From a virus, in IMG/VR virus record IMGVR_UViG_3300037993_001242, positions 96,001 to 160,000 of that record: a stretch of DNA of 64,000 nt; one strand, written 5' to 3'. The notes under the pieces are model-generated. The model searched no databases. It saw only the letters and a program-made list of their open reading frames with translations, and was not told the origin of the DNA. Positions 2,922 to 56,535 of the stretch are shown here, one piece after another. Position numbers and translations under genes: made by a program. Positions within the stretch are counted from its first letter, which is position 1, and each line of letters opens with the position of its first letter.

Positions 2922-3242
2922 TCAGAAATTGTAGTAATTCAACCGTTTCATTGCCCGGTATGCGTTTTTGGCACCAAGGGAACCGCGCCGCTCAATCGCC
3001 CGCTGAAGAATGGCCTGCGCGATGGACGCGTTGTCAAACGGAGACTGGCGGCGTTCACCCTGCAAGGTGCTAATGGTGCCATCCTTGACCAGTCGCTGAT
3101 AAAGCTCGCGGGCGTCACGGGTGATGTCATCGACTCCCTCGTCAAAATCGACGGTTTCCATGTACTGCGCAGCCACTGTGCGCGGATTAAATTCATCCGG
3201 GCCAGTTTCCAGCAAAGTGTCAACGACTACGCGGGCCGTCAT
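2922..3242 (-). CDS. LLE/DPD-leader protein (putative virion-internal cargo)
   Basis: Starts MTARVVVDTLLETGPDEFNPR; GTAGTTA 4 nt upstream. Confidence 0.75.
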   Translation of the reverse strand: MTARVVVDTLLETGPDEFNPRTVAAQYMETVDFDEGVDDITRDARELYQRLVKDGTISTLQGERRQSPFDNASIAQAILQRAIERRGSLGAKNAYRAMKRLNYYNF

Positions 3243-3249
3243 GCTCTAA

Positions 3250-3492
3250 CTACGCCCGTTGTAGCTGGAGCAGATCGATCAACAGATTGGACATTTCATC
3301 GGATGCCCGCTCGGCGTCTTCCTTGTAAATCGTACCCAAACGCTCGCTCAAATCCTGCAAACCAAACAACGTCCGCTCAGCGGCCTCCAGTTGAGCCAGT
3401 TGATGCGGGGAAAATAAGTTGTGCTTCCAGCGCAGCAAACTGCGGATGGCCATCGCCTGTTCATTCAGCGTGATTTGATTTTCCATGCCCAT
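3250..3492 (-). CDS. Hypothetical protein
   Basis: ATG placed just after the stop of the upstream gene; helical composition. Confidence 0.55.
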   Translation of the reverse strand: MGMENQITLNEQAMAIRSLLRWKHNLFSPHQLAQLEAAERTLFGLQDLSERLGTIYKEDAERASDEMSNLLIDLLQLQRA

Positions 3493-3502
3493 CAGAACAG
3501 AT

Positions 3503-3910
3503 TTACAACACAAATATACGACTGGAGCCGTTGTCCCACGCGATGGTGATCGGGTTGCCATTGGGCTGGAGCGGCAATCCGGCGACCGCCTTATCCAAAT
3601 AGGCAACCAGCGGTGAGTTGATGTCCGTACCCGTGTCGGAACACAAGACCACGGCGTTTACGACGCTGCCATACACGGTGCCAAAAGTCACGTCGTTGGC
3701 ATCCGCAACACCCAAGGAAGCCGTCCGGTTGGCCAGTGTGCCAGACACGGCAATGCGGGCGGCCAAGGGCACATCCGCCAACGTGGCATGGGCGGCAGAG
3801 TACGTGTAATCCGCCGTTCCCACCAGAACACAGACGATGGGATCGGTCAGCCAATTCAGCGTATTGCTGAGAAATCCTTCTTTTGCTGCTGGATAAATTG
3901 CGTCTGACAC
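3503..3910 (-). CDS. Conserved phage virion structural (tail-associated) protein
   Basis: DAIYPAAKE...YTYSAAH...ADANDVTF...PLVAYLD...GLPLQPNGNPITIAWDNG..IF resembles a widespread phage tail protein family; late motif upstream. Confidence 0.65.
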   Translation of the reverse strand: MSDAIYPAAKEGFLSNTLNWLTDPIVCVLVGTADYTYSAAHATLADVPLAARIAVSGTLANRTASLGVADANDVTFGTVYGSVVNAVVLCSDTGTDINSPLVAYLDKAVAGLPLQPNGNPITIAWDNGSSRIFVL

Positions 3911-3934
3911 AACTTAACTACGAATACGTTCTTT

Positions 3935-5563: not shown

Positions 5564-5568
5564 AACCT

Positions 5569-6090: not shown

Positions 6091-6144
6091 CGTATACACG
6101 TGTAGGCTACCGGCAACTCGGACGGCCCGCGTAATTAAGCTGAG

Positions 6145-7014: not shown

Positions 7015-7022
7015 CGCCGTCC

Positions 7023-7640
7023 ATGAACACATTTCACGACTACGAAAGCATGGGCTGCGTGGACTTTGACCGCCACAATGCCGTCGTGCTTGAAACGTAT
7101 TCCGGTGTGGACATCATCAAGTGGCACGGGCGTATCACCGATCAGTTGGTCGGGATGGTAGAAGAAGCTGAAAAAGGCCGCAATTTCCCGTATGCCGACA
7201 AAGTCCGGGAATTCCTGAAGGCGTGGCGCGCCAACGAAATCACCGGCTCCATCAACCGCGAAACTCTCGAAATCCTCAAAGCGGCGGCGGACATGCTGGC
7301 CGTGGACAACTGGAATTTCCGTTCCTATTTTTCCAGTCTGGCCACTCAGTTGAAGGTCTTGATTGGCTCCGAAGAGCAGCTTCCTCGCGACGTGGATATG
7401 GCGCAAAACGAGCCGCTGGCCGGTACTGGCGGCGCTGGACGCGGCGCTCCGCCCATGTCACCCACCTTTGGGCCGGAGGGCAAGCCGGAAGACGAAATTC
7501 CACCCGGCGGTGCTGCTCCCGATGAAGGCGGCGCACCCGGCGCAGCGCCTCCCGGTGAAGGCCCCGTCCCACCCGGTGAGGAAGATGAAGAAGAAAAAAA
7601 GAAAAAACTGCCCGGTGAGGAGGCCATTGCCAGTGCATGA
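7023..7640 (+). CDS. Hypothetical protein with Pro/Gly/Glu-rich tail
   Basis: ORF in a tightly coupled cluster. Confidence 0.6.
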   Translation: MNTFHDYESMGCVDFDRHNAVVLETYSGVDIIKWHGRITDQLVGMVEEAEKGRNFPYADKVREFLKAWRANEITGSINRETLEILKAAADMLAVDNWNFRSYFSSLATQLKVLIGSEEQLPRDVDMAQNEPLAGTGGAGRGAPPMSPTFGPEGKPEDEIPPGGAAPDEGGAPGAAPPGEGPVPPGEEDEEEKKKKLPGEEAIASA

Positions 7641-7933
7641 ACCGCGCTCAACAGTTAGTCCGAAAGCTGGTTGAAGCTGGCCCTGACGAACTTCGCCCCA
7701 AAGGTGAAGTACTGCGCCTTCCTGATCCTGTTCCAGAAATCTATTACGTTGATCCCGAAAACGAAGAGGCTGGTTTAAGCTGGCACAATGATTTGGCCAG
7801 ACAGTTAAATCGTTTATCCGGCTTGACCGAAAGGCTCAAACGCGCCAACCAGAATCAAGACGCAGCCGACCTCGCTGAAATCATCGAGCGCGTTGCTGAG
7901 TTTGAAAATGTGGGCAAGGTTCAGCAACAATGA
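7637..7933 (+). CDS. LLE/DPD-leader protein
   Basis: MNRAQQLVRKLVEAGPDELRPK; ATGA overlap with upstream gene. Confidence 0.75.
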   Translation: MNRAQQLVRKLVEAGPDELRPKGEVLRLPDPVPEIYYVDPENEEAGLSWHNDLARQLNRLSGLTERLKRANQNQDAADLAEIIERVAEFENVGKVQQQ

Positions 7934-8262
7934 CGCGTGCCCAACACATTGTATACGATCTGCTGGAAGCTGACCCGGATGAAGTTGATCCACAGCATTA
8001 CGTAGATGCGGTTTACGGCGAAGTCACCCGTGGCGAAGTTAACGCGATTTCGGCCATGACGGCGAATATGTTTTATCATCGCACCGCCACAACTAGAGAC
8101 GGCAAATCGCCGCTGCGTGCCCGCCGGAATGGCCGAACCAAGACGTGGAAGCGCCAACCGGGCGTTTTTCGCATCCCGGTCAAATATGGCCTGTACGATT
8201 ACTTTTACATCGACAACAACAATGCTGACGAATGGTCAACCATCCCCAATCCGCCCAAATGA
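7930..8262 (+). CDS. LLE/DPD-leader protein with basic phage domain
   Basis: MTRAQHIVYDLLEADPDEVDPQHY, then RRNGRTKTWKRQPGVFRIPVKYGLY. Confidence 0.75.
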   Translation: MTRAQHIVYDLLEADPDEVDPQHYVDAVYGEVTRGEVNAISAMTANMFYHRTATTRDGKSPLRARRNGRTKTWKRQPGVFRIPVKYGLYDYFYIDNNNADEWSTIPNPPK

Positions 8263-8573
8263 AAGCCAAACAGCTAGTCGCCACCCTGCTGGAGCAGCAA
8301 CCCGATCCTGATGCGCTCCCGGCCAAGGCCGAGGCCCATCGGCTGATCGGTCAAACGCTTTACATGCTCGTGCTGTACAGCCAGCGCGACGATATGATCG
8401 CGGTGGATGCGCACAACCTCTCCCTTGAGCAAGTTGGCGTTGAAGTCACCAAATGGCGCGCTAAGGGTATGCCTGCCTTCAGGCAGGAGCAGCAAGAAGC
8501 GCACGATGACTCATTTGAACCGGAGGATTGTCCGCAGTGCGACGAAGAAATAAAACGGATAACACAACAGTAG
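8259..8573 (+). CDS. LLE-leader protein
   Basis: MKAKQLVATLLEQQPDPD; ATG at 8259 overlaps the upstream stop. Confidence 0.7.
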   Translation: MKAKQLVATLLEQQPDPDALPAKAEAHRLIGQTLYMLVLYSQRDDMIAVDAHNLSLEQVGVEVTKWRAKGMPAFRQEQQEAHDDSFEPEDCPQCDEEIKRITQQ

Positions 8574-8586
8574 TTAAGGTCAGACT

Positions 8587-26684: not shown

Positions 26685-28124
26685 GTGAAAGCTGACGTGC
26701 TTGTTAATCTGCTACTCGAACTGAACGTGCTAAACGTTCAGGATATAGACAGAGAACTCAAAAAGCTCGCCGCCTACGTCGAAGACCCCCGCGCCCAGAA
26801 GTGGCTGATGCGGGTCGCCCGGAATTTCATCATCAACATCGATCAGTTGCTGAAACAGCCCTACCGCGCCAAAGCCGAACCTCGCGGCCATTTTGGCAGC
26901 AAGTATCGTTACGAACCCACCGGCGGATTTGATCCCAAGCAGGCTCCCGCCGAACCGTCATCGGAAACCAGAATCAAATGGTGGGGCGAACAGCCGATGG
27001 CCGGTGATCCCAATGCCTGCCACACCTGCGGCGGCAGCGGTTACGTCCAGACGATCAAACACACGGAAACGGGCGAAGAAGTCCAAGCTCCGTGGACAAC
27101 CCGTGATCCTGAAGAAGAGCGCAAACGCTGCCCAGACTGTAAAGGCACCGGAAAACGAAAATATCAAAAGCCAAGCGGGGGCGAAGGTTTCTTTCCTGAA
27201 TCCAAAACCCTTATCGAAGCCGGGCGCAAAAGAGCAGCAGCAATGTCACCCGAAGAGCCAATAGAACCTGATCCGGCGGGTGTCTACACCAGCACACTGC
27301 ATGAGCCTGCGATCCAACGGCACATCGACCAAAACTTCCGGCCTTATCGAACCAAGACCGCGCCCAAAAAAGAACTTTTTGGCGGGCCGCCACCGGCTTC
27401 AAAAGTGGAGCCGTGGGTCAAAGAGCGAGAAACGGAACAGGAACTGCATCATTTCGACCCGATCCAAGTGCGCCGCCGGGAACTCTGGATTAACCTCGAA
27501 AATCTGGTCAATTATTTCAACTGGAAGTCCAGCGTGCTGGCCAAAAGAGACAGTGAAAAACCGGAGGAACAAAACCGGGCCAGAAGCGCTGAACTGTTCT
27601 TCCGCCAACTGGAGACGATGCCGACTGCCGATCTCGAAGGTTTCCGGGACATCATGCGCCAAGGGCAGGATTACGCTTACGACGTGGAAAACCGGCCATG
27701 GCTGTACATGACCGACCCGAAGTTGGTCTCCGAATACCGGGGTTTGAAGCTGATCCGAGCCACACTCTGGCAGACAGTTTATCATTTGAGCCGACGCAAG
27801 ACAGCGAAGGACGATGAACCCACGTGGTGTACCAATACGGAGCACCACGCCAAGAGCTATTCAAGTCAGGGGCCGCTTTATTTCGTCGACAAAAACGGCT
27901 ACCCGTACGTCCTGCTGCATTTTGAAACCACGCAAGCTAAAGGTCTGAACGATGCTGAAATCGAAGCACCGGTAGCCAAAGAAATCGCTCCTCTCTTCGC
28001 CGATCCCCAACGCTTCCCTCTTGAAAAATTTGGCGAAACCGAAAGACGATTTGGCGGCGGCGGGCTGGCCCTTTTGAAGGCGGCGGTCAAAGCCTATCGG
28101 CAAAAAGCCGGTATACAGGGTTAA
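26685..28124 (+). CDS. LLE-leader PcfJ-like protein with DnaJ-type Zn-finger insert
   Basis: MKADVLVNLLLE; CHTCGGSG...CPDCKGTG; C-terminal WCT...YSSQGPLYFV. Confidence 0.7.
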   Translation: MKADVLVNLLLELNVLNVQDIDRELKKLAAYVEDPRAQKWLMRVARNFIINIDQLLKQPYRAKAEPRGHFGSKYRYEPTGGFDPKQAPAEPSSETRIKWWGEQPMAGDPNACHTCGGSGYVQTIKHTETGEEVQAPWTTRDPEEERKRCPDCKGTGKRKYQKPSGGEGFFPESKTLIEAGRKRAAAMSPEEPIEPDPAGVYTSTLHEPAIQRHIDQNFRPYRTKTAPKKELFGGPPPASKVEPWVKERETEQELHHFDPIQVRRRELWINLENLVNYFNWKSSVLAKRDSEKPEEQNRARSAELFFRQLETMPTADLEGFRDIMRQGQDYAYDVENRPWLYMTDPKLVSEYRGLKLIRATLWQTVYHLSRRKTAKDDEPTWCTNTEHHAKSYSSQGPLYFVDKNGYPYVLLHFETTQAKGLNDAEIEAPVAKEIAPLFADPQRFPLEKFGETERRFGGGGLALLKAAVKAYRQKAGIQG

Positions 28125-31429: not shown

Positions 31430-31866
31430 ACGCTGTCGCTCTAGTGACTAAACTGCTGGAAGACGATCCCGACGTGATTCGTCCAAAGGATTACCTGCGC
31501 CAACTTCCAGCGCGAAAACAGGAACGCTGGTGCTTTTCCTCTGCTGACCTACAGCAGCCTGAAAACTGCCACAGCTACGACGAACTCGTCGCCAACGTAA
31601 TAACTGGAGAAGGCGGAGCATCCCGTAGCGTGGAATTCGACAATGAAGAACAAACAGACGTTATTGTCTACAGGAATGGCATCGTCACAAATAAATTTGA
31701 TGATGGAACGATAGGCGTGCCGAAAGAAATTCAAAAACTAGCCGATGACGTTGAGGAGTTGGTAAATCCACGCGGTAATACCGATGAAACCGCTTTTTGC
31801 AACGTTTGGCGCAACGTGTGGACGGACGAAACCGGTGTCTTTCTTGGCTGGGCACCGGAAGAATAG
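31426..31866 (+). CDS. LLE/DPD-leader protein ending in TAG in frame with next gene
   Basis: MNAVALVTKLLEDDPDVIRPKDY. Confidence 0.75.
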   Translation: MNAVALVTKLLEDDPDVIRPKDYLRQLPARKQERWCFSSADLQQPENCHSYDELVANVITGEGGASRSVEFDNEEQTDVIVYRNGIVTNKFDDGTIGVPKEIQKLADDVEELVNPRGNTDETAFCNVWRNVWTDETGVFLGWAPEE

Positions 31867-31878: not shown

Positions 31879-32517
31879 ATGCAACACATTTTTGAATTAG
31901 CCAGAGGAGCCAGCGAAGAACAACTGGATCAAATTGAAGCGATCATCCGGGACTCCTTGGAACGCGCCACCAGCGCCGCCGATTTTGAACGACTGACCAA
32001 CCGACAGTTGGAACCTTTTAACGTGCGGTTCAGCAGTTCACATCCAACCTTGGCCAGCACTCGCGCACCGGCCATGTACGACGGCACAGCCGTAGTGCTT
32101 AACACGAATTTCATCTATCAACCGCAACTTGGTGCAGATTCTGTAGCGCGGGGGACTCGTATTATGATTTCCCACGAATTAGTTCATCATGCTCAACACC
32201 AAGCGGCTGAAAAAACTGGAGATGTTGGCAAACTGGCAGATCAAGGCGGCAGATTACAGACTACCACCGGACAAGTAAACTGGGAGCGCTATACCGAAGA
32301 CCCGCACGAAAACATGGCGTATGCCAGATCAGAGGTTGATGTGATGCGCGCCATGGGTTTTTCCCAAAAAGAAATTTTGCGGCGGTTACAGCAGGGAAAG
32401 CGTTCATCCGGCATGAACTACGCGCCTGCCGATAAAAAACGTTTCCTGAAAAATGCCTATCGCTTTGCCACTGAAAGTCGTGCCCAGCGAATCGTAACTA
32501 ATTTGTTGGAAAGTTAA
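31879..32517 (+). CDS. Zincin-like metallopeptidase (HExxH)
   Basis: ISHELVHHAQH...EDPHENMAY; C-terminal RAQRIVTNLLES. Confidence 0.7.
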   Translation: MQHIFELARGASEEQLDQIEAIIRDSLERATSAADFERLTNRQLEPFNVRFSSSHPTLASTRAPAMYDGTAVVLNTNFIYQPQLGADSVARGTRIMISHELVHHAQHQAAEKTGDVGKLADQGGRLQTTTGQVNWERYTEDPHENMAYARSEVDVMRAMGFSQKEILRRLQQGKRSSGMNYAPADKKRFLKNAYRFATESRAQRIVTNLLES

Positions 32518-36365: not shown

Positions 36366-36686
36366 ATGGCTGGACAAAGAATTGAACTGCCGCCCTACTC
36401 GATGTTTGCAAAAACGCCTGTATACGACGTTGGCGGCACCATCGTTTTCGGCCTCATGGCCGACGTGATTGTCCCCGACTTGACGGACAATCTTTTCATC
36501 ATTCCGCTGGAAGGTGTCAATCGGCTGGACTTGATCTCCGATGAATTTTACGGAACCCCGGAACTGTGGTGGGTACTCGCCCGCGTAAACAACATCCAAG
36601 ACGCGCTGGTCGGCGTCCCGGTCGGAACCACGATCCGCATCCCCACCAAAGACCGACTGGCCAGCGCCGGAGTGCTGAACGTATGA
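36366..36686 (+). CDS. Baseplate wedge gp53-like / LysM-like protein
   Basis: RLDLISDEFYGTPELWWVLARVNNI...GTTIRIP; GTAGTTA 4 nt upstream. Confidence 0.8.
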   Translation: MAGQRIELPPYSMFAKTPVYDVGGTIVFGLMADVIVPDLTDNLFIIPLEGVNRLDLISDEFYGTPELWWVLARVNNIQDALVGVPVGTTIRIPTKDRLASAGVLNV

Positions 36687-37120
36687 AAGCAACCCGCTTG
36701 GTAGCCGTACTGCTGGAAGACGACCCGGATGTGGTAGACCCTGTCCGCTACTTGAAGGATTTGACCGGGCCGGACAAACGGATACGCATCACGTTCAGCC
36801 GCACCACACCGGAATCCGCCGTCGAGGGTGACTTTTCCTCCAGCGGCTGGATCGACGAAGAAGGTGTCGAGATGACCCCTGACCTGTATGACGTTGAAGA
36901 TGGCATCACCGCCGTCGACAAGACGGTAAAATTTTTACGGGATGAAGGCGCGATCACCGCCTCTTCCAGCCATTTTTCACCGGGCGATTGGTTCTCAACA
37001 GATTGGCGCACGGTTGATTACCGCACCGGCGAGGATGAAGAACGAAGTTTTCATCTTGTTGGATTTACACCGGAAGAACAAATTGAAATACACGACCGCC
37101 TTTTTAAGAAAGGACAATAA
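36683..37120 (+). CDS. LLE/DPD-leader protein with conserved phage domain
   Basis: MKATRLVAVLLEDDPDVVDPVRY; TPESAVEGD...SGWIDE; DYRTGEDEERSFHL. Confidence 0.75.
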   Translation: MKATRLVAVLLEDDPDVVDPVRYLKDLTGPDKRIRITFSRTTPESAVEGDFSSSGWIDEEGVEMTPDLYDVEDGITAVDKTVKFLRDEGAITASSSHFSPGDWFSTDWRTVDYRTGEDEERSFHLVGFTPEEQIEIHDRLFKKGQ

Positions 37121-37122: not shown

Positions 37123-37611
37123 ATGGCTTATTTGACTGAAGCTCGACTCGACAGCGTGATGGATATTCCGCTGGCGCTGCCCTCCACCACCCTGCAACAG
37201 GGCGACTGGCTGGTGGTCGGGTCTATCCAGATACTGTCTCCCATGACCTTGACCTACAAGTTTGCCAATCTCGATCTGCTGGACAGCACAGTGGACACGA
37301 CGCAAATCCAAGCGGTCAACAAGATTTTCGGTAATCTGGGCCTCGTGTACCTGTCCTTGTGGCTCAATTATTCCTCCGGCAGTTCGCCGGGAGCGGCGGG
37401 GGCGCTGGACGTGCTCATTGCTTCATCGTTGGGTTCATTTCAGCGCAACGTGACCAACATCGTGACGTTGACCACGCCGGGCATTTATTCGTGGATCGTG
37501 GCCAACAACTGCCAGCCGTCTTCGGATGCGTCGTCCTTGATCAACTCGGCGCTTTCCATCGACTACACGGTCACTATCACCGGCCAAGTCCGACTGGATT
37601 TGGGATCATAA
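37123..37611 (+). CDS. Putative structural beta-rich protein (paralog of next)
   Basis: AYLTEARLDSVMDIPLALPSTTLQQG. Confidence 0.6.
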   Translation: MAYLTEARLDSVMDIPLALPSTTLQQGDWLVVGSIQILSPMTLTYKFANLDLLDSTVDTTQIQAVNKIFGNLGLVYLSLWLNYSSGSSPGAAGALDVLIASSLGSFQRNVTNIVTLTTPGIYSWIVANNCQPSSDASSLINSALSIDYTVTITGQVRLDLGS

Positions 37612-41084: not shown

Positions 41085-41362
41085 ATGGCATGAATGACGA
41101 ATTCAGTCTGCTGCCCAGCGATCTGGACATGGCGCGTCTGGCGGGAATACCAGTCGATGGCCGGGTGGAAGCTGAAAATCAGACGTGGGTCTGCCTTCGT
41201 TACCCGACCAAACCCGCCAAAGGCTGGCAGTGGTGCGAATACTCCTTGATCGTCAACTGTCCTAACGTGCCTGCCCACGGGGGCACGTATGAGTTTAAGT
41301 GCTTGAAGGGTGTTGTCGCCTATTTACAACAATTGGAAAACGTACGAAAGGCCAACCATTGA
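41081..41362 (+). CDS. Hypothetical protein
   Basis: Coupled ORF. Confidence 0.55.
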   Translation: MNGMNDEFSLLPSDLDMARLAGIPVDGRVEAENQTWVCLRYPTKPAKGWQWCEYSLIVNCPNVPAHGGTYEFKCLKGVVAYLQQLENVRKANH

Positions 41363-41733
41363 AAGCCGCACAAATCGTAAACCAACTGCTGGAAGTTGGC
41401 CCGGATGAAATCAATCCGAAACGGGAAATGCTGCGCGTTGATCCGGCGGCGGACATCAAGGAAATCGTTCACGCCCTGCAAAACGAAGGCATTCTTACGC
41501 TCGCGTACAAGAGGGCCGCCGACATCCTTAAACTTCACGTAAAACTGACCGAATGGACAACCGAAGAAAGGCTTGAAAACTGGCTACATGTGTTTTTAAC
41601 GGGACAACTGAATCTTCAAATTGACATCCACGGAATGACAACCAGAAATTTAGGCCCCGATTATAGTGGCACCGCGTATGAAGTCATGTTCCCGCTGAAA
41701 GGCCAACCCACGCCCTTTACAAAGTTGGTGTAG
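41359..41733 (+). CDS. LLE/DPD-leader protein
   Basis: TTG start overlapping the upstream TGA; MKAAQIVNQLLEVGPDEINPK. Confidence 0.75.
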   Translation: MKAAQIVNQLLEVGPDEINPKREMLRVDPAADIKEIVHALQNEGILTLAYKRAADILKLHVKLTEWTTEERLENWLHVFLTGQLNLQIDIHGMTTRNLGPDYSGTAYEVMFPLKGQPTPFTKLV

Positions 41734-41740
41734 TTAAAAC

Positions 41741-42853
41741 GTGATCGCTGAAACCATCGTCCGCGCTTTGCTGGAAGAAGTTGAAGACCAGCACCGCTTT
41801 GTGACCGTCGTCGTCCTGCGCAACCCGGACGACCCGGAAGTCCTGTTGGTGCAGCGCAAAAATCCGCCGGAAGCAGGCAAGTGGGGCGCGCCGGGCGGCC
41901 ATGCCAATGAAGGCGAAGCGCTTACGGACGCAGCCAAGCGCGAACTTAAAGAAGAAACGGGTATTGAGGCCGCCCAACTTCATTACTTTGACCGCGTATT
42001 CATCCCGGAACGGGATGCCTTCGACAACTTCTACTGGACGGTTGTAGACGATGACGCCAGTGCCCGCCGGGGTGACGATGCCAAACACGTCAAATGGACG
42101 AAAGTGGCCGAGATCGGCGAACTGGCTTTCAACTGCCACGTACAGATCAAGGACGCGGCTGACCGGGCGTTCGCCATCGGCAAAATTGCCGAATCAAAAG
42201 CCGAGGGCAAGTATGGACGCAACGGCCTGCTGATCGTTTTCGAGGGCATCGACGGCGCGGGCAAAACCACGCAGGTCAGGAAACTGACCGGCTGGCTCGC
42301 CGAACGCGGCTACAAGGTCAAGACCACCAAATGGAATTCATCGGAAATCCTCAACGGCGCGCTGTACAAAGCCAAAAAGCACAAGGAACTTTCGCCCATC
42401 CTGTTCAGCCTGCTCCACGCTGCCGACCTCACGTGGCGCTACGAGAACATCGTCCGGCCCGCCCTCGACAAAGGCAAAGTCGTAATCTGCGACCGCTACT
42501 ATTACACCAGTTACGTCCGTGACAGCCTGCGCGGCGTCAACGATGCGATCCTCGATTACATTTACGAGGACTGGCGCAAACCCGACGTGGTCTTTTACTG
42601 CAAGGTTCCCATTCGCACAGCGGTCGAGCGCTTGCTGCGCGAAAAAGGCGTGTATTACTACAGCGCCGGGCGGGACATCGGCTACAAAGGCAGCAAAGAG
42701 GAGTGTGCCATGCAATACGAGGAGGACATGGAAAAGGTGTACAAGCGCCTTTTTGCCAAAGAACCCAGTGTGTCTGAGATTAGTACCGAACGCCCGATCA
42801 GCGAAATAGCTGATGAAATCAAGGCTATTTTGAAGAAAAAGTTCGATGTTTAA
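41741..42853 (+). CDS. tmk: LLE-leader Nudix hydrolase-thymidylate kinase fusion
   Basis: Nudix box GGHANEGEALTDAAKRELKEETGI; FEGIDGAGKTTQ, ICDRYYYTS. Confidence 0.88.
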   Translation: MIAETIVRALLEEVEDQHRFVTVVVLRNPDDPEVLLVQRKNPPEAGKWGAPGGHANEGEALTDAAKRELKEETGIEAAQLHYFDRVFIPERDAFDNFYWTVVDDDASARRGDDAKHVKWTKVAEIGELAFNCHVQIKDAADRAFAIGKIAESKAEGKYGRNGLLIVFEGIDGAGKTTQVRKLTGWLAERGYKVKTTKWNSSEILNGALYKAKKHKELSPILFSLLHAADLTWRYENIVRPALDKGKVVICDRYYYTSYVRDSLRGVNDAILDYIYEDWRKPDVVFYCKVPIRTAVERLLREKGVYYYSAGRDIGYKGSKEECAMQYEEDMEKVYKRLFAKEPSVSEISTERPISEIADEIKAILKKKFDV

Positions 42854-44536: not shown

Positions 44537-45790
44537 TCAGACGTGCAGAAACGTACGGCTGCCCGGCGGCTTGACCGCGTCATGGGCAGCCGTGTTGTAT
44601 TCAAGTGCGTGACGCGGTAACTCAAATTCAAATCCGCGATTCACCGCCGCTTGATTATCAAACGACAGTTGCACCCAAGTCACAGGGCCGTTGGGTTTTA
44701 GACCAAACTGATTAAGCGCCTTATTGACCTTGATTTTGGCTCCCCGTGCTGTGGCGTAAACATGGCCGTATACACGCCATTTATTTTCGTGGCGACAGAC
44801 GCCGATAGCGCGCAACCCAACACTGTCCATAGCCCACATGAGCTTGTCGACTCTGGCCTTGGTCTCGAATGTGGTTTTAATAAATTGACGCGGATCAACG
44901 GCGTCAGGGTCTAAAGTTTCAGTCACGCGTTTGTTTGTTTCCAGCCACAACGCCATGGCTACATCCATGGCTGTACTATATGTTTTACCTTTGAAAATTT
45001 TTGTTGGAACGCCCGTAGCGTCAATAACCCGCCATTTACCAGACTTGTTCAGACCTATTTTACCAAGGCCATTATTCCAGAGTGCATGTTCATCGGTTAA
45101 GACCGCGTACCAGTCAGCATATTTAGCAAACCTGAAATCTGGCGTTGTTAGGGTGTACGCCTTGGGATCAACGGCATCTGGATCAAGTGCCTCTTTGATG
45201 CTGAATTCAGCTATCAATTGATCAAGGCGCACTCCCAGCAATGCGCGCTCAACGTATTTGGAACTTGTAAGCTCCCATCTGCCATTCTCACTTGTGTACA
45301 CTTGCACAGTAAGTTCATCGAGCGGCTCCCCCGCACCGAAATGGCTGTGGTTGGGCCAGACAATCAACTGATAATTGCCTATGTTTTTAAAGTAGAAACC
45401 CGGAGAATCTTGTCTCGATGCTTCCAGCGCAAATCCGCGTTCACCCAGCGTCTTCAGCCAGTTAAAGGTGCTGCGCGCATAATGACGAGGATCAACATCG
45501 TCAGGATCAGCTTCACGCAGCGCCATCAGCTTGTGTATACGCTGGGCGGCTGCCTCAGCAAATTGAGCGTGCCGGACGCGAATGGTGGTGATGGCGTAGC
45601 CCTGCTTACGTGCCTCCTGCCGGGCCTGTATGGACGCCTTGCCCTTGTTTTCAGCGTGGCCCGTGGCCAGCGCGTGGGTTTCGTCGGGCAGCGGCAGCAG
45701 CGACCAATACCAGATGTGGCTCCCGTTTATTGGAGCGGGCCGGTATTCAAGGGCGGCATACCTGCGTTGAAACAAGGCGTTAGCGTTCAC
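44537..45790 (-). CDS. Multi-module protein with three internal E-x-DPD junctions
   Basis: READPDDVDPRHY, KEALDPDAVDPKAY, TETLDPDAVDPRQF; GTAGTTA 4 nt upstream. Confidence 0.75.
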   Translation of the reverse strand: MNANALFQRRYAALEYRPAPINGSHIWYWSLLPLPDETHALATGHAENKGKASIQARQEARKQGYAITTIRVRHAQFAEAAAQRIHKLMALREADPDDVDPRHYARSTFNWLKTLGERGFALEASRQDSPGFYFKNIGNYQLIVWPNHSHFGAGEPLDELTVQVYTSENGRWELTSSKYVERALLGVRLDQLIAEFSIKEALDPDAVDPKAYTLTTPDFRFAKYADWYAVLTDEHALWNNGLGKIGLNKSGKWRVIDATGVPTKIFKGKTYSTAMDVAMALWLETNKRVTETLDPDAVDPRQFIKTTFETKARVDKLMWAMDSVGLRAIGVCRHENKWRVYGHVYATARGAKIKVNKALNQFGLKPNGPVTWVQLSFDNQAAVNRGFEFELPRHALEYNTAAHDAVKPPGSRTFLHV

Positions 45791-45804
45791 ACGCTAACTA
45801 CCGC

Positions 45805-47638: not shown

Positions 47639-48568
47639 CTACTTGGGTTCATGTGGCTCGTTGCCACCCGCATGACCACAAACATCGCCCCCGGTATCAT
47701 CCACCAAAACGCCCTGTTCCTGCTTGACCCGCTTGTTGCAGTGAGCGCAACGGTGAGACCATGTTGCTCCGAATTTACCGCGCTCTATATCCTGCTGAGT
47801 CAATTCGACCCATATCTGCCTTAATTGATCCCAGTCCCCTTTTTCGGCAACCCCCGCGTAAATTAAAATGGCCTGATCCAGATCATAACCGGCCTTCGTC
47901 AACTCCGCTCGCGCCAGCGCTTCAGCATCTTCCTTGGAAACAGCTTGAACCGGATAGTCAAGCGCCGGTGGGCCATCTACTTCAATATCCCTACCCTCAA
48001 CGTCTTTGGCTCCCTCGAATGATACGATCCAGTAGTGACCGGGCAGCTTTTTAAGCATAACCCGTGGGTCAACTTCGTCGGGATCGATGGCTTCCCTGAC
48101 TCGTTGCACGCGATCCCGGTGGTCTGCCCATTCCTGTTTGGCGCGCTTTTTCTCCACGCCGGTCATGTCGAACGGACTGGTCACCATGCTCCAACGCCCG
48201 CAGGCGCATTTCCACCCATCCCACGATGATACCAATCGGCAGGGCTTGTGGCCGTGCTTGAGGCTGAAGCGCTTGAAGTTGATGTCATCAGGATCGAGCG
48301 CTTCGTTACGATATTTGGGCTTTGAAACGATCCCGTATTTTCGTTCCAGTTCTTCTCGTGGTGTATGGTATATTTCTTCCTCTTCCACTTGTTGGGGCCA
48401 ATCACTGAATGGACAGGTTAAATCAGCACAGTATCCTGATTGGTCAACGTCACTACCGCATTTTTTACAAAAACCCGGTATGTGAAGTACTTGCTGTTTG
48501 AAGTCAACGTCGTCAGGATCAGCTTCCAGCAGGCGGGAAACGATGAATTGTGCTCGCGGGGTGTTCAC
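47639..48568 (-). CDS. LLE/DPD-leader multi-module protein
   Basis: RAQFIVSRLLEADPDDVDFK, NEALDPDDINFK, REAIDPDEVDPR; Cys-rich modules. Confidence 0.78.
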   Translation of the reverse strand: MNTPRAQFIVSRLLEADPDDVDFKQQVLHIPGFCKKCGSDVDQSGYCADLTCPFSDWPQQVEEEEIYHTPREELERKYGIVSKPKYRNEALDPDDINFKRFSLKHGHKPCRLVSSWDGWKCACGRWSMVTSPFDMTGVEKKRAKQEWADHRDRVQRVREAIDPDEVDPRVMLKKLPGHYWIVSFEGAKDVEGRDIEVDGPPALDYPVQAVSKEDAEALARAELTKAGYDLDQAILIYAGVAEKGDWDQLRQIWVELTQQDIERGKFGATWSHRCAHCNKRVKQEQGVLVDDTGGDVCGHAGGNEPHEPK

Positions 48569-48894
48569 GACTGCGATACCGCGCTCATGGCCGTCTGCTC
48601 CACGTAGCGCTGGGCATCGTCACGCGTGGCAAAGCCATCTTTTTGGGGAGCGCGCCGGGGCATGGCAAACCAAGGACTTTGCAGCGTCCGGGCCTTGGCC
48701 TCCGGCGTCATGGACGGCGGCAGGTTGGTTTCCATGTGCTTGCTGATCATGCCCAGCCACCGGCCATCCGACGAATGTACACCGTAAACTTCCGGCTGGT
48801 CTTCGACCGGTTGCAGCGTGCTGGATAGAGGAGCCGCACTCGTCGGTTCATCTTCCAGCAAAAAGGATACCATCTGGCGTGCTCTGGTGCTCAT
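48565..48894 (-). CDS. LLE-leader protein
   Basis: MSTRARQMVSFLLEDEP. Confidence 0.7.
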   Translation of the reverse strand: MSTRARQMVSFLLEDEPTSAAPLSSTLQPVEDQPEVYGVHSSDGRWLGMISKHMETNLPPSMTPEAKARTLQSPWFAMPRRAPQKDGFATRDDAQRYVEQTAMSAVSQS

Positions 48895-48896
48895 GT

Positions 48897-49235
48897 TCAG
48901 CCGCTTGTTTTGTCGTCTTTTTGAGGATGCCACTTAAAGCGAGTGGTCAAATCGTGCTTGAACGACGGCGTTTCCGCTTTAGGCGGTATTTTAATCTTAA
49001 TCGTCGGCCTGCTTGCTTTAGGTTCAGCCGAGATGGCTGAGGTTTGCTCGTCCGGCTCCACTGTTGGTACCTGCGCAGAATACGCCCGTTGACCCAAAAA
49101 GTCCTTGGCCGTGAATTTGAACTTTTTAAAACCGCTTTGCCGCCACGGATCACTTGCGCCACCAACAGGCACAGGTGTATTTCCAGCGTATTCCAGCAGC
49201 TTGTCTACGACTTCGGCAGCAGTTAGTTTGACCAT
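48897..49235 (-). CDS. LLE-leader protein
   Basis: MVKLTAAEVVDKLLE; GTAGTTA 5 nt upstream of 49235. Confidence 0.7.
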   Translation of the reverse strand: MVKLTAAEVVDKLLEYAGNTPVPVGGASDPWRQSGFKKFKFTAKDFLGQRAYSAQVPTVEPDEQTSAISAEPKASRPTIKIKIPPKAETPSFKHDLTTRFKWHPQKDDKTSG

Positions 49236-49251: not shown

Positions 49252-49932
49252 TCATCTTCCACGATACCTCACCGAACCTTGGCGCACCAACGGACGACCC
49301 ATCCGATAACGCGTCAATCTTGATTTTGGCATCCGTACGATTGCCGGTGAATCTGGCTCCTTATTGATGGTGGCAAACGCCCGTTCAACCCGGCTGGCAT
49401 TCAAGCTTACAGGTAGTAGTGGTCTCGAAAACGCCCTTTCTATCCAAGCATCCATAAAAACATAAAGCTCCTTAATATCTTCAAACGAATGCGTGTGCAG
49501 AACACGAATGATGCCAATCATCTCCGTTTCAAATTCTTCCAGATCAGAGTGCTCATGTATCGAATAATGCCGGGTAAATTCACCGTCTGGCGTCACCACC
49601 AACACATGCTTGATCCCGCGCCGCCCCGACACGCGCCGAAACCATCCAAAAGCAAACCAAGTCGTCAACGTGTTGTCCAAAACGTGACCATCCGCGCCAC
49701 AATTCACAAATATCCGGCAAAAACTTGCTGGACGCTTTGACCGTTCGTGTTTGTAGCCTCTGGCCAGTGGAACATCTCGAACGTATGCCTTGAGATGATT
49801 GCTGCTCGCCGATTTATTAAGATTAAACTCCAAGCGCTTCAACCGCTCGGTTACGTTCAGATGATCCCATACGTAGAAATCGAGGGCGTCCGGGTCAAAC
49901 TTCTGGTGCTGGTGTTGAAGGGGCTTTTTCAC
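49252..49932 (-). CDS. Hypothetical protein, start uncertain (possible +1 frameshift partner of upstream gene)
   Basis: Protein-like sequence begins at FDPDALDF across the upstream stop; nearest GTG is at 49932 inside the upstream gene. Confidence 0.55.
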   Translation of the reverse strand: MKKPLQHQHQKFDPDALDFYVWDHLNVTERLKRLEFNLNKSASSNHLKAYVRDVPLARGYKHERSKRPASFCRIFVNCGADGHVLDNTLTTWFAFGWFRRVSGRRGIKHVLVVTPDGEFTRHYSIHEHSDLEEFETEMIGIIRVLHTHSFEDIKELYVFMDAWIERAFSRPLLPVSLNASRVERAFATINKEPDSPAIVRMPKSRLTRYRMGRPLVRQGSVRYRGR

Positions 49933-50419
49933 TGGGTTCTTCTTTGTACCGCGTGAACGGTTTGATGGGTTTGTCAAACCAGACCACGCTGTCGTCGTTC
50001 ATTTCCGCACCGACATAATCGGTCGGCAATATGGCCATTTGGCCTTCACTCGGTTTCCTGTACGCCGACCGCAAACCATAACCTTTAGCCGCTAAAGCGG
50101 CTTTTCCTTTGGCATACGGGCCGGTACCGGAATAATGAAGCTGCTCACCGGTGATAAATCGCTTCACATCTTTACGCTTTTTGCCGTACCGCGCAAGTTC
50201 GCGCTCAAGTTCTACCACACAACGAAGTTCGTCCCACGTAGCATCGGCTTTCCGACGCAGGGTCTTCAACTGGAGAAATTTGGCATGAATCGAATCCCAG
50301 TGTTTAAAAAGTTCAGAGTGTTCGCCGGTCGGCTCGTCGGCTCCCTGCGGCGGAGGCGGCACCGGCTGGTCAAGATCAGTTTCAGTCAAAACATCCACTA
50401 TGTTTTTCGCTTTGCTCAT
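49895..50419 (-). CDS. LLE-type leader protein
   Basis: MSKAKNIVDVLTETD; GTAATTA 4 nt upstream. Confidence 0.7.
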   Translation of the reverse strand: MSKAKNIVDVLTETDLDQPVPPPPQGADEPTGEHSELFKHWDSIHAKFLQLKTLRRKADATWDELRCVVELERELARYGKKRKDVKRFITGEQLHYSGTGPYAKGKAALAAKGYGLRSAYRKPSEGQMAILPTDYVGAEMNDDSVVWFDKPIKPFTRYKEEPSEKAPSTPAPEV

Positions 50420-53089: not shown

Positions 53090-53141
53090 GGTTCATTGCT
53101 GGCCTGCCAACAGAGGTTGGCAGGCCAATTCAACGCGTTGA

Positions 53142-54091: not shown

Positions 54092-54092
54092 A

Positions 54093-54431
54093 TCAGTTGC
54101 GGCTGGCCGTGGCTTTGCGATAAACCCAAACGGCCATGTCTTTGGGCATGACGACGACCGTGACTTCGGCGGGATGATTGAGCACAAAGACGCCAGAATG
54201 GTCGATCCCCTCTGATGTGTTGGCTTGAACGACCATGGCGCTGAACTCCGTGGATTTGCCCTCCAAGCCGCGAGAACCTTTGGGGGTGGATTTATCCGTC
54301 CAGACAATTTCACCGGTGTCAACTGCCTCGGTGAATCGGTGCAAGTACTTTACCGCGCTGGCAATCACGCCAACACCGTTGACGGCGGCAACCGCAGCAT
54401 CTCTTAACGCTTTATCGAAATTATCGTCCAT
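54093..54431 (-). CDS. Hypothetical early protein
   Basis: TTGACA-N17-TACGGT upstream. Confidence 0.55.
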   Translation of the reverse strand: MDDNFDKALRDAAVAAVNGVGVIASAVKYLHRFTEAVDTGEIVWTDKSTPKGSRGLEGKSTEFSAMVVQANTSEGIDHSGVFVLNHPAEVTVVVMPKDMAVWVYRKATASRN

Positions 54432-54482
54432 GCTCAAAGCACCGTATACAATAACCGGCACTCTGTCAACACTAAAATTTAA

Positions 54483-54767
54483 CTAAAAAAGGCGCGATTC
54501 AACCAGCGGTTCAAGCTCGGCGGCGTAAAAATATAGATTGTCTCCGGGTTCAAATCCGTCGACGTGTATCCAAACCGAATCTGGATCGTCGGTTGTTGTA
54601 ACCACAGTTGCTTTTTCGCGAGGCCAGCCGCGCTTGTTGAGCATTACCCGTTCTCCCTTCAAAAATCTCTGCCGCTGCTGCGGACGCGCCATACGCACAT
54701 AATGCTTCGGATCAACTTCGTCCGGGTCGGTTTCCAGCAACCTGTTTACAAGATCGTGCGTGTTCAT
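54483..54767 (-). CDS. LLE/DPD-leader protein with SH3/KOW-like domain
   Basis: MNTHDLVNRLLETDPDEVDPKHY; FLKGERVML...YFYAAELEP. Confidence 0.78.
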   Translation of the reverse strand: MNTHDLVNRLLETDPDEVDPKHYVRMARPQQRQRFLKGERVMLNKRGWPREKATVVTTTDDPDSVWIHVDGFEPGDNLYFYAAELEPLVESRLF

Positions 54768-55087
54768 ACATTTTTAGGCCCGATGTATTGAATACTGATG
54801 ACGTAAGACACGTCATCCTTGGGCACCAAATCCGGTCGATTGAGCGCGTCAATGGCATTGAAAAACTGTTCCACCCAAATCGTTTCATCGATTTCATCGT
54901 CAGGTTCAGTCCCAGCGGGCGGCGCAAGCGGCACGATCACAACCGCAGTATATCCTTCTTCCGGCGTGGGCAAGTCAACGGTGACGTGGTACTCGTACAG
55001 CAGGTTGATGTGCTGCAAATAGTCCTTCGGACGAAGTTCGTCCGGGCCAACTTCCAGCAACCGGTTTACAATGTTGTGCGCATTCAT
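54764..55087 (-). CDS. LLE/DPD-leader protein
   Basis: MNAHNIVNRLLEVGPDELRPKDY. Confidence 0.78.
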   Translation of the reverse strand: MNAHNIVNRLLEVGPDELRPKDYLQHINLLYEYHVTVDLPTPEEGYTAVVIVPLAPPAGTEPDDEIDETIWVEQFFNAIDALNRPDLVPKDDVSYVISIQYIGPKNV

Positions 55088-56535
55088 CCGTGTCGTCTAA
55101 TCCAACTAAGTATCAACTTTTTGGCTTCGAGTTCCGAAAGATCAAATTTTTGAGTTCCTTTGATGTTGTCTTCGCCCTCACGCCAATCCGCCACAGACAC
55201 TGTCCACAGACCGTCCTCCTGCTTTCTTGCCGTGTAAACAAAATCAGTAGTGTTACGTTCAAAAGTAGGATAACTTACGGTTTGCCCCTGTATCACCGGC
55301 AATTCTGGATCAGCCACAAATTCCTTGTCCTCGCGTCCTTCAAAACCGTGCGCTCTAAGCCACGATTCAAAAGACTGCGGCAACTGCCGGAAAAGTTCTT
55401 TGGCTGGAGGCGGCTGATCCGGGTCAATCGACTCCACAACTTCTGGGATGTGCCGCCATTCCAATTTAGCCCTGCAACGGCCACACTCCTGCAAATCGAG
55501 ATCATCTTCGTCGCCGGGCTTGATGCCGTTGAATCCAGCCTCCAGATACGAAAAATCATCCATCAACAACCCCCGGAAATGGCAGATCGGGCATTCCACC
55601 AGTGGATTGCCAGTGTCTTCTGGATTGGCAATCACAATCAGTCGACCCTGAATCTTCAAATCACGCGGGGTCATCCCTTTGGTGTAATCTTTGGGCTTTA
55701 TCTCGTCAGGATCGAGCGCTTCATTGACCGTCAATCCGAGCTTGTGGGCTAAATCAGGGCGCGCTCGTCGTATCCAAAGCGCCAGTGCTTTCTGGAAAAC
55801 AGTCATCGAAGCCGATGTCCCCCAACGATCAATATATTCCGCAATGTACCCCGTGCCTTCCATGGTTCTCAACGACTGAACATCTTCTGGATTTTCCGAA
55901 CCAAAGTTGATTAGCGCGAGTTCATCCGAATCGTTTCGTCGTCTGCAATTGCTGTATACGTTCTCAATAAATTTATCAGACTTGGTAGCAAAGTATGGCG
56001 CAGCATCCGTTGTCACAGGTGGCACTCCCTCTGGCGCGTCCTCTTCATCCACCCAGATTTCCACCATGAATCGCTCTGGAATTTTTCGGAGAAATTCTTT
56101 GGGTTTAATTTCATCAGGATCGAACGCTTCGTCCATGCCGGGTGGCTCAAGATGGATGTCGTCCGCGTCTCCATGCTCCGGCGGCGAATACTCGTTATCA
56201 ACTGCTTGGGCAAAAACTTCAACAGGCTGTCCCGCCTCTTGTTCCATTTCGTCCTGCGGCTTCCAGCCTACACCGATCCAATGAACACTGGAATACGCGT
56301 ATAATTTTGCCTGCCAGACGTAAATCCACAGCAAAGTCTTTCCTTCAGTGAAACGCGCCAATTTTTCGTATTGAGCTTCGTTGGGTTTCGACATCTGCAC
56401 AAAGCGCCAACCCAATTTTTCCAGTGCGCCCCGAATCTCCAACAGCAATCCCTTTGGCACATCAGACAGGTACTGACGTGGATTAACATCATCCACGGCA
56501 TCAAGCAAAGCTGAAACTAGGCAGCGCGGCGTCAC
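55084..56535 (-). CDS. LLE/DPD-leader four-module protein
   Basis: LVSALLDAVDDVNPRQY, DEAFDPDEIKPKEF, NEALDPDEIKPKDY, VESIDPDQPPP; ATAGTTA 4 nt upstream. Confidence 0.78.
   Translation of the reverse strand: MTPRCLVSALLDAVDDVNPRQYLSDVPKGLLLEIRGALEKLGWRFVQMSKPNEAQYEKLARFTEGKTLLWIYVWQAKLYAYSSVHWIGVGWKPQDEMEQEAGQPVEVFAQAVDNEYSPPEHGDADDIHLEPPGMDEAFDPDEIKPKEFLRKIPERFMVEIWVDEEDAPEGVPPVTTDAAPYFATKSDKFIENVYSNCRRRNDSDELALINFGSENPEDVQSLRTMEGTGYIAEYIDRWGTSASMTVFQKALALWIRRARPDLAHKLGLTVNEALDPDEIKPKDYTKGMTPRDLKIQGRLIVIANPEDTGNPLVECPICHFRGLLMDDFSYLEAGFNGIKPGDEDDLDLQECGRCRAKLEWRHIPEVVESIDPDQPPPAKELFRQLPQSFESWLRAHGFEGREDKEFVADPELPVIQGQTVSYPTFERNTTDFVYTARKQEDGLWTVSVADWREGEDNIKGTQKFDLSELEAKKLILSWIRRHG

Follow-up and report, generated by a model that had tools for sequence, protein, structure and literature searches.

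About 25 unrelated proteins of an uncultured, T4-like soil phage start with one two-part tag, and in relatives of this phage the tag recurs as the junction between modules of fused proteins; the two-part tag and its junction code are new here. We analysed a window of 64,000 nt, to which all coordinates refer unless they are called genome coordinates, which apply to the whole 199-kb phage genome. Part A of the tag, a helix with the pattern A-x-x-(I/L)-V-x-x-L-L-E, opens all 17 ORFs that the initial annotation had listed as sharing an N-terminal motif, with small deviations (LVE in 7637, LTE in 49895, LLD in 55084, Thr for Ala in 54483, and a 6-residue lead-in in 48897). Part B, (G/D)-P-D-x-(V/I)-x-P-(K/R)-x-(Y/F), follows the helix in full in 12 of the 17, which confirms the roughly 12 proteins previously said to continue with a DPD..P element, and in variant form in ORFs 8259 and 55084. 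The tagged genes and multi-module proteins of the window are as follows.

2922–3242, minus strand: tagged gene, 106 aa, full tag (A and B), TAGTTA 4 nt before the ATG; directly upstream of a baseplate J-like gene (578–2920)
7637–8573, plus strand: three consecutive tagged genes with start/stop overlaps of 4 nt (7637–7933 and 7930–8262, full tag; 8259–8573, variant B, QQPDPDALPAK)
10966–11451, minus strand: tagged gene, 161 aa, full tag, TAGTTA-led
26685–28124, plus strand: 479-aa protein with helix A only (KADVLVNLLLE), Cys-rich body, weak match to the DnaJ CXXCXGXG motif
31426–31866, plus strand: tagged gene, 146 aa, full tag
31879–32517, plus strand: 212-aa ORF with an HELVH (HExxH) motif, candidate zinc peptidase, ending in helix A (RAQRIVTNLLES, then stop)
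36683–37120, plus strand: tagged gene, 145 aa, full tag; overlaps a TAGTTA-led baseplate wedge gene (36366–36686) by 4 nt
41359–41733, plus strand: tagged gene, 124 aa, full tag, TTG start
41741–42853, plus strand: NUDIX and thymidylate kinase fusion, 370 aa, helix A only (IAETIVRALLE), TAGTTA-led
44537–45790, minus strand: four-module protein, 417 aa, without N-terminal helix, TAGTTA-led; internal junctions at aa 96, 204 and 295 (LRE-A-DPD, IKE-AL-DPD, VTE-TL-DPD)
47639–48568, minus strand: three-module protein, 309 aa, full N-terminal tag; junctions at aa 93 and 163
48565–48894, minus strand: helix-A-only gene (ARQMVSFLLE)
48897–49235, minus strand: helix-A-only gene (AAEVVDKLLE-YA), LLEY subtype
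49895–50419, minus strand: 174-aa gene, helix A variant (AKNIVDVLTE), TAATTA-led
54483–55087, minus strand: two consecutive, fully tagged genes (54483–54767 and 54764–55087) with a 4-nt overlap
55084–56535, minus strand: three-module protein, 483 aa, variant tag (CLVSALLD-AVDDVNPRQY) with Asp in place of Glu, TAGTTA-led; junctions at aa 140 and 276

A six-frame search of the window with a regular expression for the helix gave 20 matches, 15 of which are starts of the listed ORFs; ORFs 54483 and 55084 are too deviant for this expression. Across the whole genome the helix lies within the first 25 residues of 24 of the 299 called genes (mean 0.3 and maximum 2 in 200 shuffles), and the expression for B occurs 22 times, against 1.6 in shuffles. 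The initial annotation had suggested scanning the full genome with a profile of the leader; such a profile, built from an alignment of 36 tags of the window and of relatives, matched the phage's own genome 25 times, 13 of them with E < 1e-10. None of the 36 aligned tags departs from the Leu and Glu of the Leu-x-Glu site (L8 and E10). Three features had been missed before: further tagged genes beyond the window (genome coordinates 42–65 kb), internal copies of B in the multi-module proteins at 44537–45790, 47639–48568 and 55084–56535, and copies of helix A that close two proteins at their C-termini. In AlphaFold2 models (pLDDT 78–85) the tag consists of two short helices with a connecting turn; in the model of the protein at 10966–11451 it forms a helix from residue 2 to 13, a turn and a short capped helix from 20 to 26. 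The tag profile gave no significant match to scaffold or head-core proteins, a point against a head-loading role, and the possibility that the tag copies a scaffold C-terminus found no support: the tail of the protease-scaffold ORF, AKILLRERDPRGITESY, is loosely alike by eye and is scored by neither tag profile.

The sequences that follow the tag had been described as unrelated, and this holds: an all-against-all BLAST of 44 body fragments returned one weak pair only. Among the assignments proposed for individual bodies, the Nudix and thymidylate kinase domains of 41741–42853 were recovered and the Cys-rich bodies in part, through weak zinc-ribbon or Cys-rich matches for 26685 and 47639, but PcfJ-like and SH3-like bodies were reproduced by none of Pfam, NCBIfam and PHROGs. 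No fold match was obtained for the well-modelled 161-aa protein at 10966–11451 (best Foldseek E = 0.78); its body belongs to a widespread family of about 130 aa with 1,910 members, which is normally untagged, with tagged members confined to this phage clade, and the tag is thus an add-on. Descent of the tagged proteins from a common ancestor as diverged paralogues was ruled out, since independent widespread families (the 130-aa family, Nudix, InPase and 2H) that are untagged elsewhere are among the bodies. A RiPP-type leader family was rejected because the bodies reach 480 aa and some are enzymes.

A profile search of 1.84 billion representative proteins identified 73 clusters with the tag, and in 45 of the 48 single-copy clusters it begins no later than residue 10. 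Among bacterial and archaeal genomes (185,579 species) 39 pattern matches contained no true tag, and no chain among solved structures carries it. Searches of 50,697 deposited phage genomes for cultured relatives, with a 1010-aa gene and one tagged protein as queries, gave no blastn or tblastn match. Scans of IMG/VR yielded chance matches and one 21.7-kb contig with a relative of the 2,419-aa chain described below, the neighbours of which were uninformative.

In the relatives, the same modules either stand alone as tagged genes or are fused to one another through the tag; the last module of 47639–48568, for example, is a separate, fully tagged gene in two of them (L038 and L069), and the slot of 36683–37120 holds from 2 to 7 tag-delimited modules, some fused. 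Fused chains reach 2,419 aa with at least 10 junctions, the median junction spacing is 107 aa, and the set of modules between conserved flanking genes differs widely from one relative to the next. At 70 of 76 internal junctions a Glu stands 1–6 residues before B; in those 70, P3 is hydrophobic in 76%, P1' is Ser, Ala, Gly or Thr in 86%, and the front of helix A has decayed. The resulting pattern, [hydrophobic]-x-Glu, then Ser/Ala, then B, reads as the cutting logo of T4-type head proteases.

On balance, the tag is probably a T4-style capsid-targeting leader combined with a protease site, with B retained on each released module. Loading into the head and cutting appear the most likely role because the tag starts about 25 unrelated proteins and joins modules in the giant proteins of relatives. 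Part A, which forms the extreme N-terminus as an amphipathic helix some 12 residues long, would dock into the assembling head core, and its last three residues, Leu-x-Glu, would be the site for the phage's head protease of the gp21 type (Peptidase_S77). Part B, here extended to (G/D)-P-D-x-(V/I)-x-P-(K/R)-x-(Y/F)-L, would lie just past the cut and become the new N-terminus of the mature protein, where it may serve in prime-side recognition by the protease or as a handle on the released modules. In long precursor chains of modules of about 100 aa, A would be required on the first module only; since every junction keeps [hydrophobic]-x-Glu, Ser/Ala and B, the protease would, within the head, reduce the chain to its small modules, and these would exit with the DNA as early effectors. 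That the mature protein retains the DPD..P element as a second signal, as the initial annotation had proposed, is likewise supported by the retention of B at every junction. More speculatively, the junction peptide might be a code with two functions, in which the Glu site directs the head protease and B is a universal post-cut handle on modules of about 100 aa; through this handle the modules might be held on the inner capsid wall, leave through the tail in an ordered way or dock on a host target. If so, this phage clade would possess a programmable cut-and-address system, in which any small domain could join the injected arsenal behind one cassette of 25 residues.

The phage encodes a suitable enzyme. 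A Peptidase_S77 (gp21-like) domain (PF03420; 60.9 bits, E = 1e-17) lies at genome coordinates 26878–27333 on the minus strand, within a 571-aa ORF that adjoins the gp23-like capsid gene. The earlier proposal of a T4-style leader cut after Glu gains partial support from this protease, from the invariant L8 and E10, from the junction pattern and from the start-proximal motif of two tagged genes in baseplate operons; the [LIVM]-x-E pattern itself is of low information. All four head-module proteins have an N-terminal hydrophobic-x-Glu, which is weak evidence because 33% of untagged genes have [LIVM]-x-E within their first 14 residues. The late motif behind which tagged genes had been said to lie is TA(G/A)TTA, 4–6 nt before the start codon, and the association is strong: it precedes 13 of 24 tagged genes versus 21 of 275 untagged ones (odds ratio 14, p = 6e-8). 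The same motif heads the head-core operon, and two tagged genes belong to baseplate operons, one with the J-like gene and one with the wedge gene. Speaking against the capsid-targeting leader are the tagged Nudix and thymidylate kinase protein and a HAD-like phosphatase, enzymes usually thought to be cytoplasmic, the position of tagged genes among baseplate rather than head genes, and the presence of helix A also at the C-termini of two proteins. The genome further contains a second, different N-terminal tag family; either family, or neither, could therefore be the head-addressing tag.

We regard it as unlikely that the tag is a helical-hairpin docking module for some other common partner (for instance a chaperone, an effector complex or a hub protein of phage or host), in which case the multi-copy proteins would be uncut multivalent binders. 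The modelled pair of helices and its turn would suit such a module, as would the C-terminal helices and the many copies of B per protein, which are typical of short binding motifs, and the second tag family suggests that address tags are in general use. However, docking leaves the extreme N-terminal position in single-copy clusters unexplained, and it accounts neither for junctions that keep hydrophobic-x-Glu and Ser/Ala while the remaining helix decays nor for the free interchange of fused and split forms. Less probable still, the junctions might be polyprotein sites of a different peptidase, e.g., the HExxH protein at 31879–32517, with processing in the cytoplasm or after delivery and no capsid targeting. 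This conserved ORF is the neighbour of a tagged gene and has helix A at its own C-terminus, where two relatives keep the helix too; in addition, the best-conserved residues follow the putative cut (the prime side), an unusual arrangement for gp21-type proteases, and embedded metallopeptidases have been proposed to process polyvalent proteins (PMC5512222). Yet Pfam, PHROGs and NCBIfam assign the ORF to no peptidase family, its AlphaFold2 model (pLDDT 53) is too poor for use, no MPTase domain occurs in 71 tag-bearing clusters, and the invariant Glu with a hydrophobic P3 fits S77 proteases, one of which is encoded. It is very improbable that the common sequence is mainly a DNA or mRNA element, i.e., a recombination cassette border that shuffles genes, as the variable module content between conserved flanks in relatives might suggest, or a 5' coding signal for messages that may be leaderless because many tagged genes start only 4–6 nt past TA(G/A)TTA. 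Against this, distant relatives preserve the motif at the protein level, internal genes of operons carry it as well, it is found within ORFs, and synonymous sites of the tags vary freely (mean nucleotide identity 55%, longest common run 19 nt), so that selection is on the protein, not the DNA, and a DNA repeat or recombination element was rejected.

Among the closest known systems is the capsid targeting sequence (CTS) of T4, which is carried by the internal proteins IPI, IPII, IPIII and Alt and removed by the gp21 prohead protease (Mullaney and Black 1996, reviewed in PMC9026906, PMC5694885 and PMC3012670). In both phages short N-terminal leaders sit on otherwise unrelated, fast-evolving proteins and end in hydrophobic-x-Glu, a gp21-family protease is present, and the leader is an evolutionary hook for new cargo; a leader of about 10–20 residues at the extreme N-terminus, as in the T4-type CTS, is found in all 17 window ORFs. 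The front half can be told from the processing residues in both: in the T4 leader residues 4 and 7 serve targeting and 8 and 10 processing (PMC9026906), a split mirrored by our junctions, in which the front is lost and the Glu site kept. However, there are about 25 tagged genes per genome here versus 4–5 in T4, the tag doubles as a repeated junction in proteins of up to 2,419 aa, and the tag, known from sequence alone, has no detectable sequence relationship to the T4 leader. Part B is unexplained by the T4 model, because no T4 leader has a conserved element past the cut like the one of 12–15 residues here.

The fused chains resemble the polyvalent proteins of Iyer, Burroughs, Anand, de Souza and Aravind (2017, PMC5512222), long chains of unrelated small domains that also occur as solo genes, and delivery with the DNA and processing into units are postulated for both. 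Polyvalent proteins combine 2 to 15 domains that have solo versions; three window proteins have 3–4 modules, and relatives have at least 10 junctions. InPase and 2H, which with MuF and DarA-N belong to the hallmark effector domains of phage-type polyvalent proteins and have been inferred to be packaged in virions (PMC5512222), occur as modules in the 71 tag-bearing clusters, although neither was found in the window's own proteins. Nudix, another domain for which delivery by virions had been inferred before, occurs in a tagged window gene. In contrast, one regular junction peptide separates the modules here, which is absent from the description in PMC5512222, and neither an embedded zincin peptidase (MPTase) nor MuF nor a portal fusion was found in the 71 clusters, nor an MPTase in the window proteins (Pfam scans). 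Unlike in polyvalent proteins, processing of the chains by the head protease is the more likely route. In the giant phages phiKZ, 201phi2-1 and SPN3US (PMC5694885, PMC10052503), a gp21-related protease cleaves many proteins of the head interior after Glu, their propeptides are thought to target the prohead, and several sites per precursor are possible. These propeptides, however, are long (often >100 residues), no leader is common between proteins, and the logo is (S/A/G)-x-E, with neither a B-like element nor regular chains of modules of about 100 aa. Encapsulin cargo-loading peptides, by analogy only, are also short and transferable and send diverse cargo inside an HK97-fold shell, but they are usually C-terminal and uncleaved and come from bacterial nanocompartments, not viruses.

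To our knowledge, only a handful of proteins are loaded into the head in T4, and how the leader is recognised is unsolved. The natural set described here is far larger, with about 25 genes per genome and 73 protein clusters worldwide; targeting helix, cut site and retained handle are clearly separable parts, and natural fusions and splits show which part is needed where. If our reading is true, it would link the T4 capsid-targeting leader with Aravind's polyvalent proteins, so far separate ideas, effector chains would be cut by the head protease, down to a size that can pass the tail, and the tag would offer a compact means of loading foreign proteins into large phage heads. The identified tag-bearing cargo comprises InPase (5 clusters), 2H phosphoesterase (2), an Imm5-like protein (1) and Nudix, and the cargo list also includes the HAD-like phosphatase and many zinc ribbons. 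Taken with the Nudix-kinase protein, this cargo suggests an enzyme set directed at bacterial defence, whose nucleotide signals it would destroy. Proteins annotated as minor head proteins in PB1-like Pseudomonas phages share about 30% identity with the InPase module.

All 17 ORFs listed in the initial annotation as sharing an N-terminal tag open with M-x(1-5) and then A-x-x-(I/L/V)-V-x-x-L-L-E, apart from a few single-residue deviations (helix A, ending in Leu-Leu-Glu). The PD..P element described after the Glu (element B) was recovered as well, since 12 of the 17 go on with x-(G/D)-P-D-(E/D/V)-(V/I/L/F)-x-P-(K/R), but it had been written too short: the full B reads P-D-x-(V/I)-x-P-(K/R)-x-(Y/F)-(L/V)-x-x-(L/T)-P. 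A six-frame scan of the window with the helix pattern returned 20 matches, 15 of them at starts of the listed ORFs. Among 299 genes called over the whole genome with a codon-usage model, 24 have the helix in the opening 25 residues (mean 0.3 and maximum 2 in 200 residue shuffles), and B occurs 22 times genome-wide versus 1.6 times in shuffles. A profile built from 36 tags matched the genome at 25 places (E < 1e-10 for 13 of them), and tagged genes cluster in two zones, at 42-65 kb and 99-152 kb of the record. In the 36-tag alignment L8, E10, P13 and D14 are invariant and A1, V5 and L9 nearly so. Several genes carry A only, including a subtype reading LLE-Y-G; A-only proteins include the Nudix-thymidylate kinase fusion, whose body was confirmed, and a HAD/PNKP-phosphatase-like protein (genome 42186-42551; HAD match weak and under the Pfam cut-off) with a DxDGT motif directly after the tag. 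An AlphaFold2 model of the 161-aa protein at 10966-11451 (62-sequence alignment, pLDDT 92.8) folds the tag into a helix (residues 2-13) that a PDE turn links to a second, short one (residues 20-26) with an Asp-Pro cap, the tag region having a pLDDT of 78-85.

Three window proteins also contain internal copies of B that the initial annotation had not listed, at a spacing of roughly 70-130 aa:
44537-45790, three internal copies of B (sequence motif)
47639-48568, two internal copies of B (sequence motif)
55084-56535, two internal copies of B (sequence motif)

The residues ahead of these copies are of the hydrophobic-x-Glu-Ala type (IKE-A, VTE-T, LRE-A, VNE-A, VRE-A, MDE-A), with RNE-A as the exception. 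We searched metagenomes with a degenerate nucleotide pattern encoding LLE-x-(G/D)-PD and obtained 80 loci; about 35 are true relatives, and 14 share synteny with this genome (50-97% protein identity). In the relatives, the same modules occur either as individual tagged genes that overlap by 4 nt at start and stop or as one fused ORF in which the tag forms the joint. The slot between the conserved baseplate wedge gene 36366-36686 (phrog_7145, E = 8e-12) and the gene at 37123-37611 is an example. This genome has a single tagged gene there; in L054 that gene, with its tag, makes up the second half of a two-module, 256-aa fusion (86% identity); L060 has a gene of 148 aa and an ORF of 512 aa with five modules, and L043 and L009 have chains of 456 and 545 aa. 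In L038 and L069 the last module of 47639-48568 forms a gene of its own with a full tag. Where it is fused, its helix has degenerated (AELIVAQLLE-A to RDRVQRVRE-A), and only P3 Val, Glu and Ala are retained. Two neighbouring plus-strand genes (genome 58636-59244 and 59256-59789; positions 18636-19789 of stretch L113) have the full helix A mid-protein with Glu-Ser just before it, in the pattern (K/H)-E-S-A-x-Q-I-V-x-R-L-L-E-Y; the same layout is found in relatives L032 and L099, and both proteins resemble LLE-Y-subtype precursors with two modules.

A 34-column tag profile run against 1.84 billion representative proteins yielded 73 clusters at E up to 1e-3. The tag begins in the first 10 residues in 45 of the 48 single-copy clusters; 25 clusters are multi-copy. 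In the largest tag-bearing proteins (2,419, 2,199 and 1,404 aa) the number of junctions ranges from 7 to more than 10, and their spacing has a median of 107 aa; the full helix A is confined to the N-terminus, and the internal consensus is x-E-S-x-D-P-D-A-V-N-P-K-D-Y-L. Of 76 internal junctions, 70 have a Glu 1-6 residues ahead of B; within this set of 70, 76% have L/V/I/M/F/Y at P3 and 86% have S/A/G/T at P1'. Since junction matches mostly start from profile column 10 onward, the P3 preference is not imposed by the search. Module domains among the tag-bearing clusters comprise InPase (5), 2H phosphoesterase (2) and Imm5-like (1), and the InPase module of one tag-bearing protein (P0123) is about 30% identical to annotated minor head proteins of PB1-like Pseudomonas phages. 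No true tag was found in 185,579 bacterial and archaeal species genomes, and none in solved structures, Pfam, NCBIfam or PHROGs.

The record (199,098 bp, 53% G+C, an estimated 82% complete, with the window at bases 96,001-160,000) has no close relative among deposited phage genomes. The gene for its gp23-like major capsid protein (PF07068, E = 2e-30) adjoins an ORF that begins with a gp21-type prohead protease (Peptidase_S77, PF03420, 60.9 bits):
genome 25726-27441 (L112:5726-7441), minus strand, 571-aa protease-scaffold ORF, Peptidase_S77 plus a coiled-coil-rich remainder

The remainder looks like a coiled-coil scaffold fused to the protease domain, whereas protease and scaffold are separate genes in T4. 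Among known systems the T4 capsid-targeting sequence comes nearest to the tag. In T4 IPIII the 10 N-terminal residues are enough for prohead loading; residues 4 and 7 of the T4 leader serve targeting, 8 and 10 cutting, and an Asp at position 10 prevents cleavage while loading stays intact (PMC9026906). In T4 and giant phages, proteases of the gp21 family cleave after Glu, need little else in the substrate and often act at multiple sites per precursor (PMC9026906, PMC5694885). In sequence-level tests the tag matches the T4-type leader in position, logo, protease and unrelated cargo, and its best reading would be a head-loading leader with a protease cut site. The tag shows a logic like that of the T4 leader: its front would be required just once per polypeptide, at the N-terminus alone, Leu-x-Glu is retained wherever two modules meet, and the matching protease is genome-encoded; free interchange of fused and split forms is expected if both give the same mature products. 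The identifiable modules (InPase, 2H phosphoesterase, Imm5-like) also fit head loading, the baseplate operons contain two embedded tagged genes, and a module size of about 100 aa may, speculatively, allow tail passage without unfolding. B, the best-conserved stretch, lies after the presumed cut and may act in prime-side recognition or as a handle on each mature module; the T4 leader has no counterpart of it. For the chains the nearest concept is the polyvalent protein, with which they share the multi-domain build and hallmark domains, but the embedded zincin peptidase of polyvalent proteins was not found in tag-bearing chains. A literature search turned up no such leader families beyond T-even internal-protein loci. 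What this case adds is a tag in two parts, the second of which would be retained, together with a regular code at the junctions of chains reaching 2,419 aa and a connection to polyvalent-protein domains.

The hexamer TA(G/A)TTA lies 4-6 nt before the start of 13 of 24 tagged genes versus 21 of 275 others, and it also heads the head-core operon (genome 29260) and the baseplate wedge gene. The genome has 82 copies, about 40 of them 4-6 nt ahead of an ATG or GTG start codon; window examples are:
3243-3252, minus strand, TA(G/A)TTA start motif
11452-11461, minus strand, TA(G/A)TTA start motif
41727-41740, plus strand, TA(G/A)TTA start motif
45791-45800, minus strand, TA(G/A)TTA start motif
56536-56545, minus strand, TA(G/A)TTA start motif

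This distance leaves no room for a Shine-Dalgarno site, and the motif looks like a minimal late promoter for leaderless or near-leaderless messages.

Several findings count against head loading or are not explained by it. Hydrophobic-x-Glu is present near the start of 33% of untagged genes, and helix A forms the C-terminus of two proteins. One is an 88-aa proline-rich, TAGTTA-led protein (genome 79654-79920, minus strand; ARQVIANLLEDDKGC), and the gene downstream of it begins with a distant tag variant, LARRILTE ... PDYIDPEKK. The other is a 212-aa HExxH ORF (31879-32517, plus strand). Its C-terminus reads RAxRIVTNLLE followed by a single further residue in three genomes; these final 12 residues are a copy of helix A, conserved across two relatives (71-89% identity). 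An invariant HELVHH motif plus EDPHENMAYARSE suggests a candidate gluzincin-like peptidase, and this product could be an alternative processing enzyme, but no peptidase or other family was matched and AlphaFold2 gave a poor model (pLDDT 53). A further N-terminal tag, M-(I/L)-P-E-x-G-(T/S)-K-x-E-F-K-(R/H)-x-V-L, is unrelated to the first and occurs in the same genome, at genome 192-199 kb and window 61079-63151 (minus strand), on many small, mostly zinc-ribbon proteins:
61079-61381, minus strand, second tag (N-terminal motif)
61615-62127, minus strand, second tag (N-terminal motif)
62762-63151, minus strand, second tag (N-terminal motif)

The bodies behind the first tag are unrelated, as originally proposed, 44 tag-stripped fragments giving one weak BLAST pair. 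The body family of 10966-11451 has 1,910 matches of about 130 aa that begin directly at the domain; A plus B is found only in the closest relatives (contigs up to 240 kb) and A alone in one relative. Judged from these comparisons, the tag is an add-on, and selection acts on it at the protein level. Thirteen full tags of the genome use differing codons at conserved residues and have a mean nucleotide identity of 55%, the longest identical run being 19 bases, which a DNA repeat does not account for. The body domain of 10966-11451 (residues 33-161, minus strand) has conserved FT.AY.EAALWS and GHDFWL.RNGHG motifs and mostly viral relatives; neither a PDB fold nor an entry of Pfam, NCBIfam or the protein atlas matches it. 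Between relatives, tagged genes have diverged more than the genes next to them in 10 of 14 loci. Because the genes flanking 44537-45790, 47639-48568 and 55084-56535 are 70-96% identical in L038 and L069 while the multi-module proteins align only over the first module or single modules, these loci behave as hypervariable cassettes, comparable to the T-even internal-protein loci.
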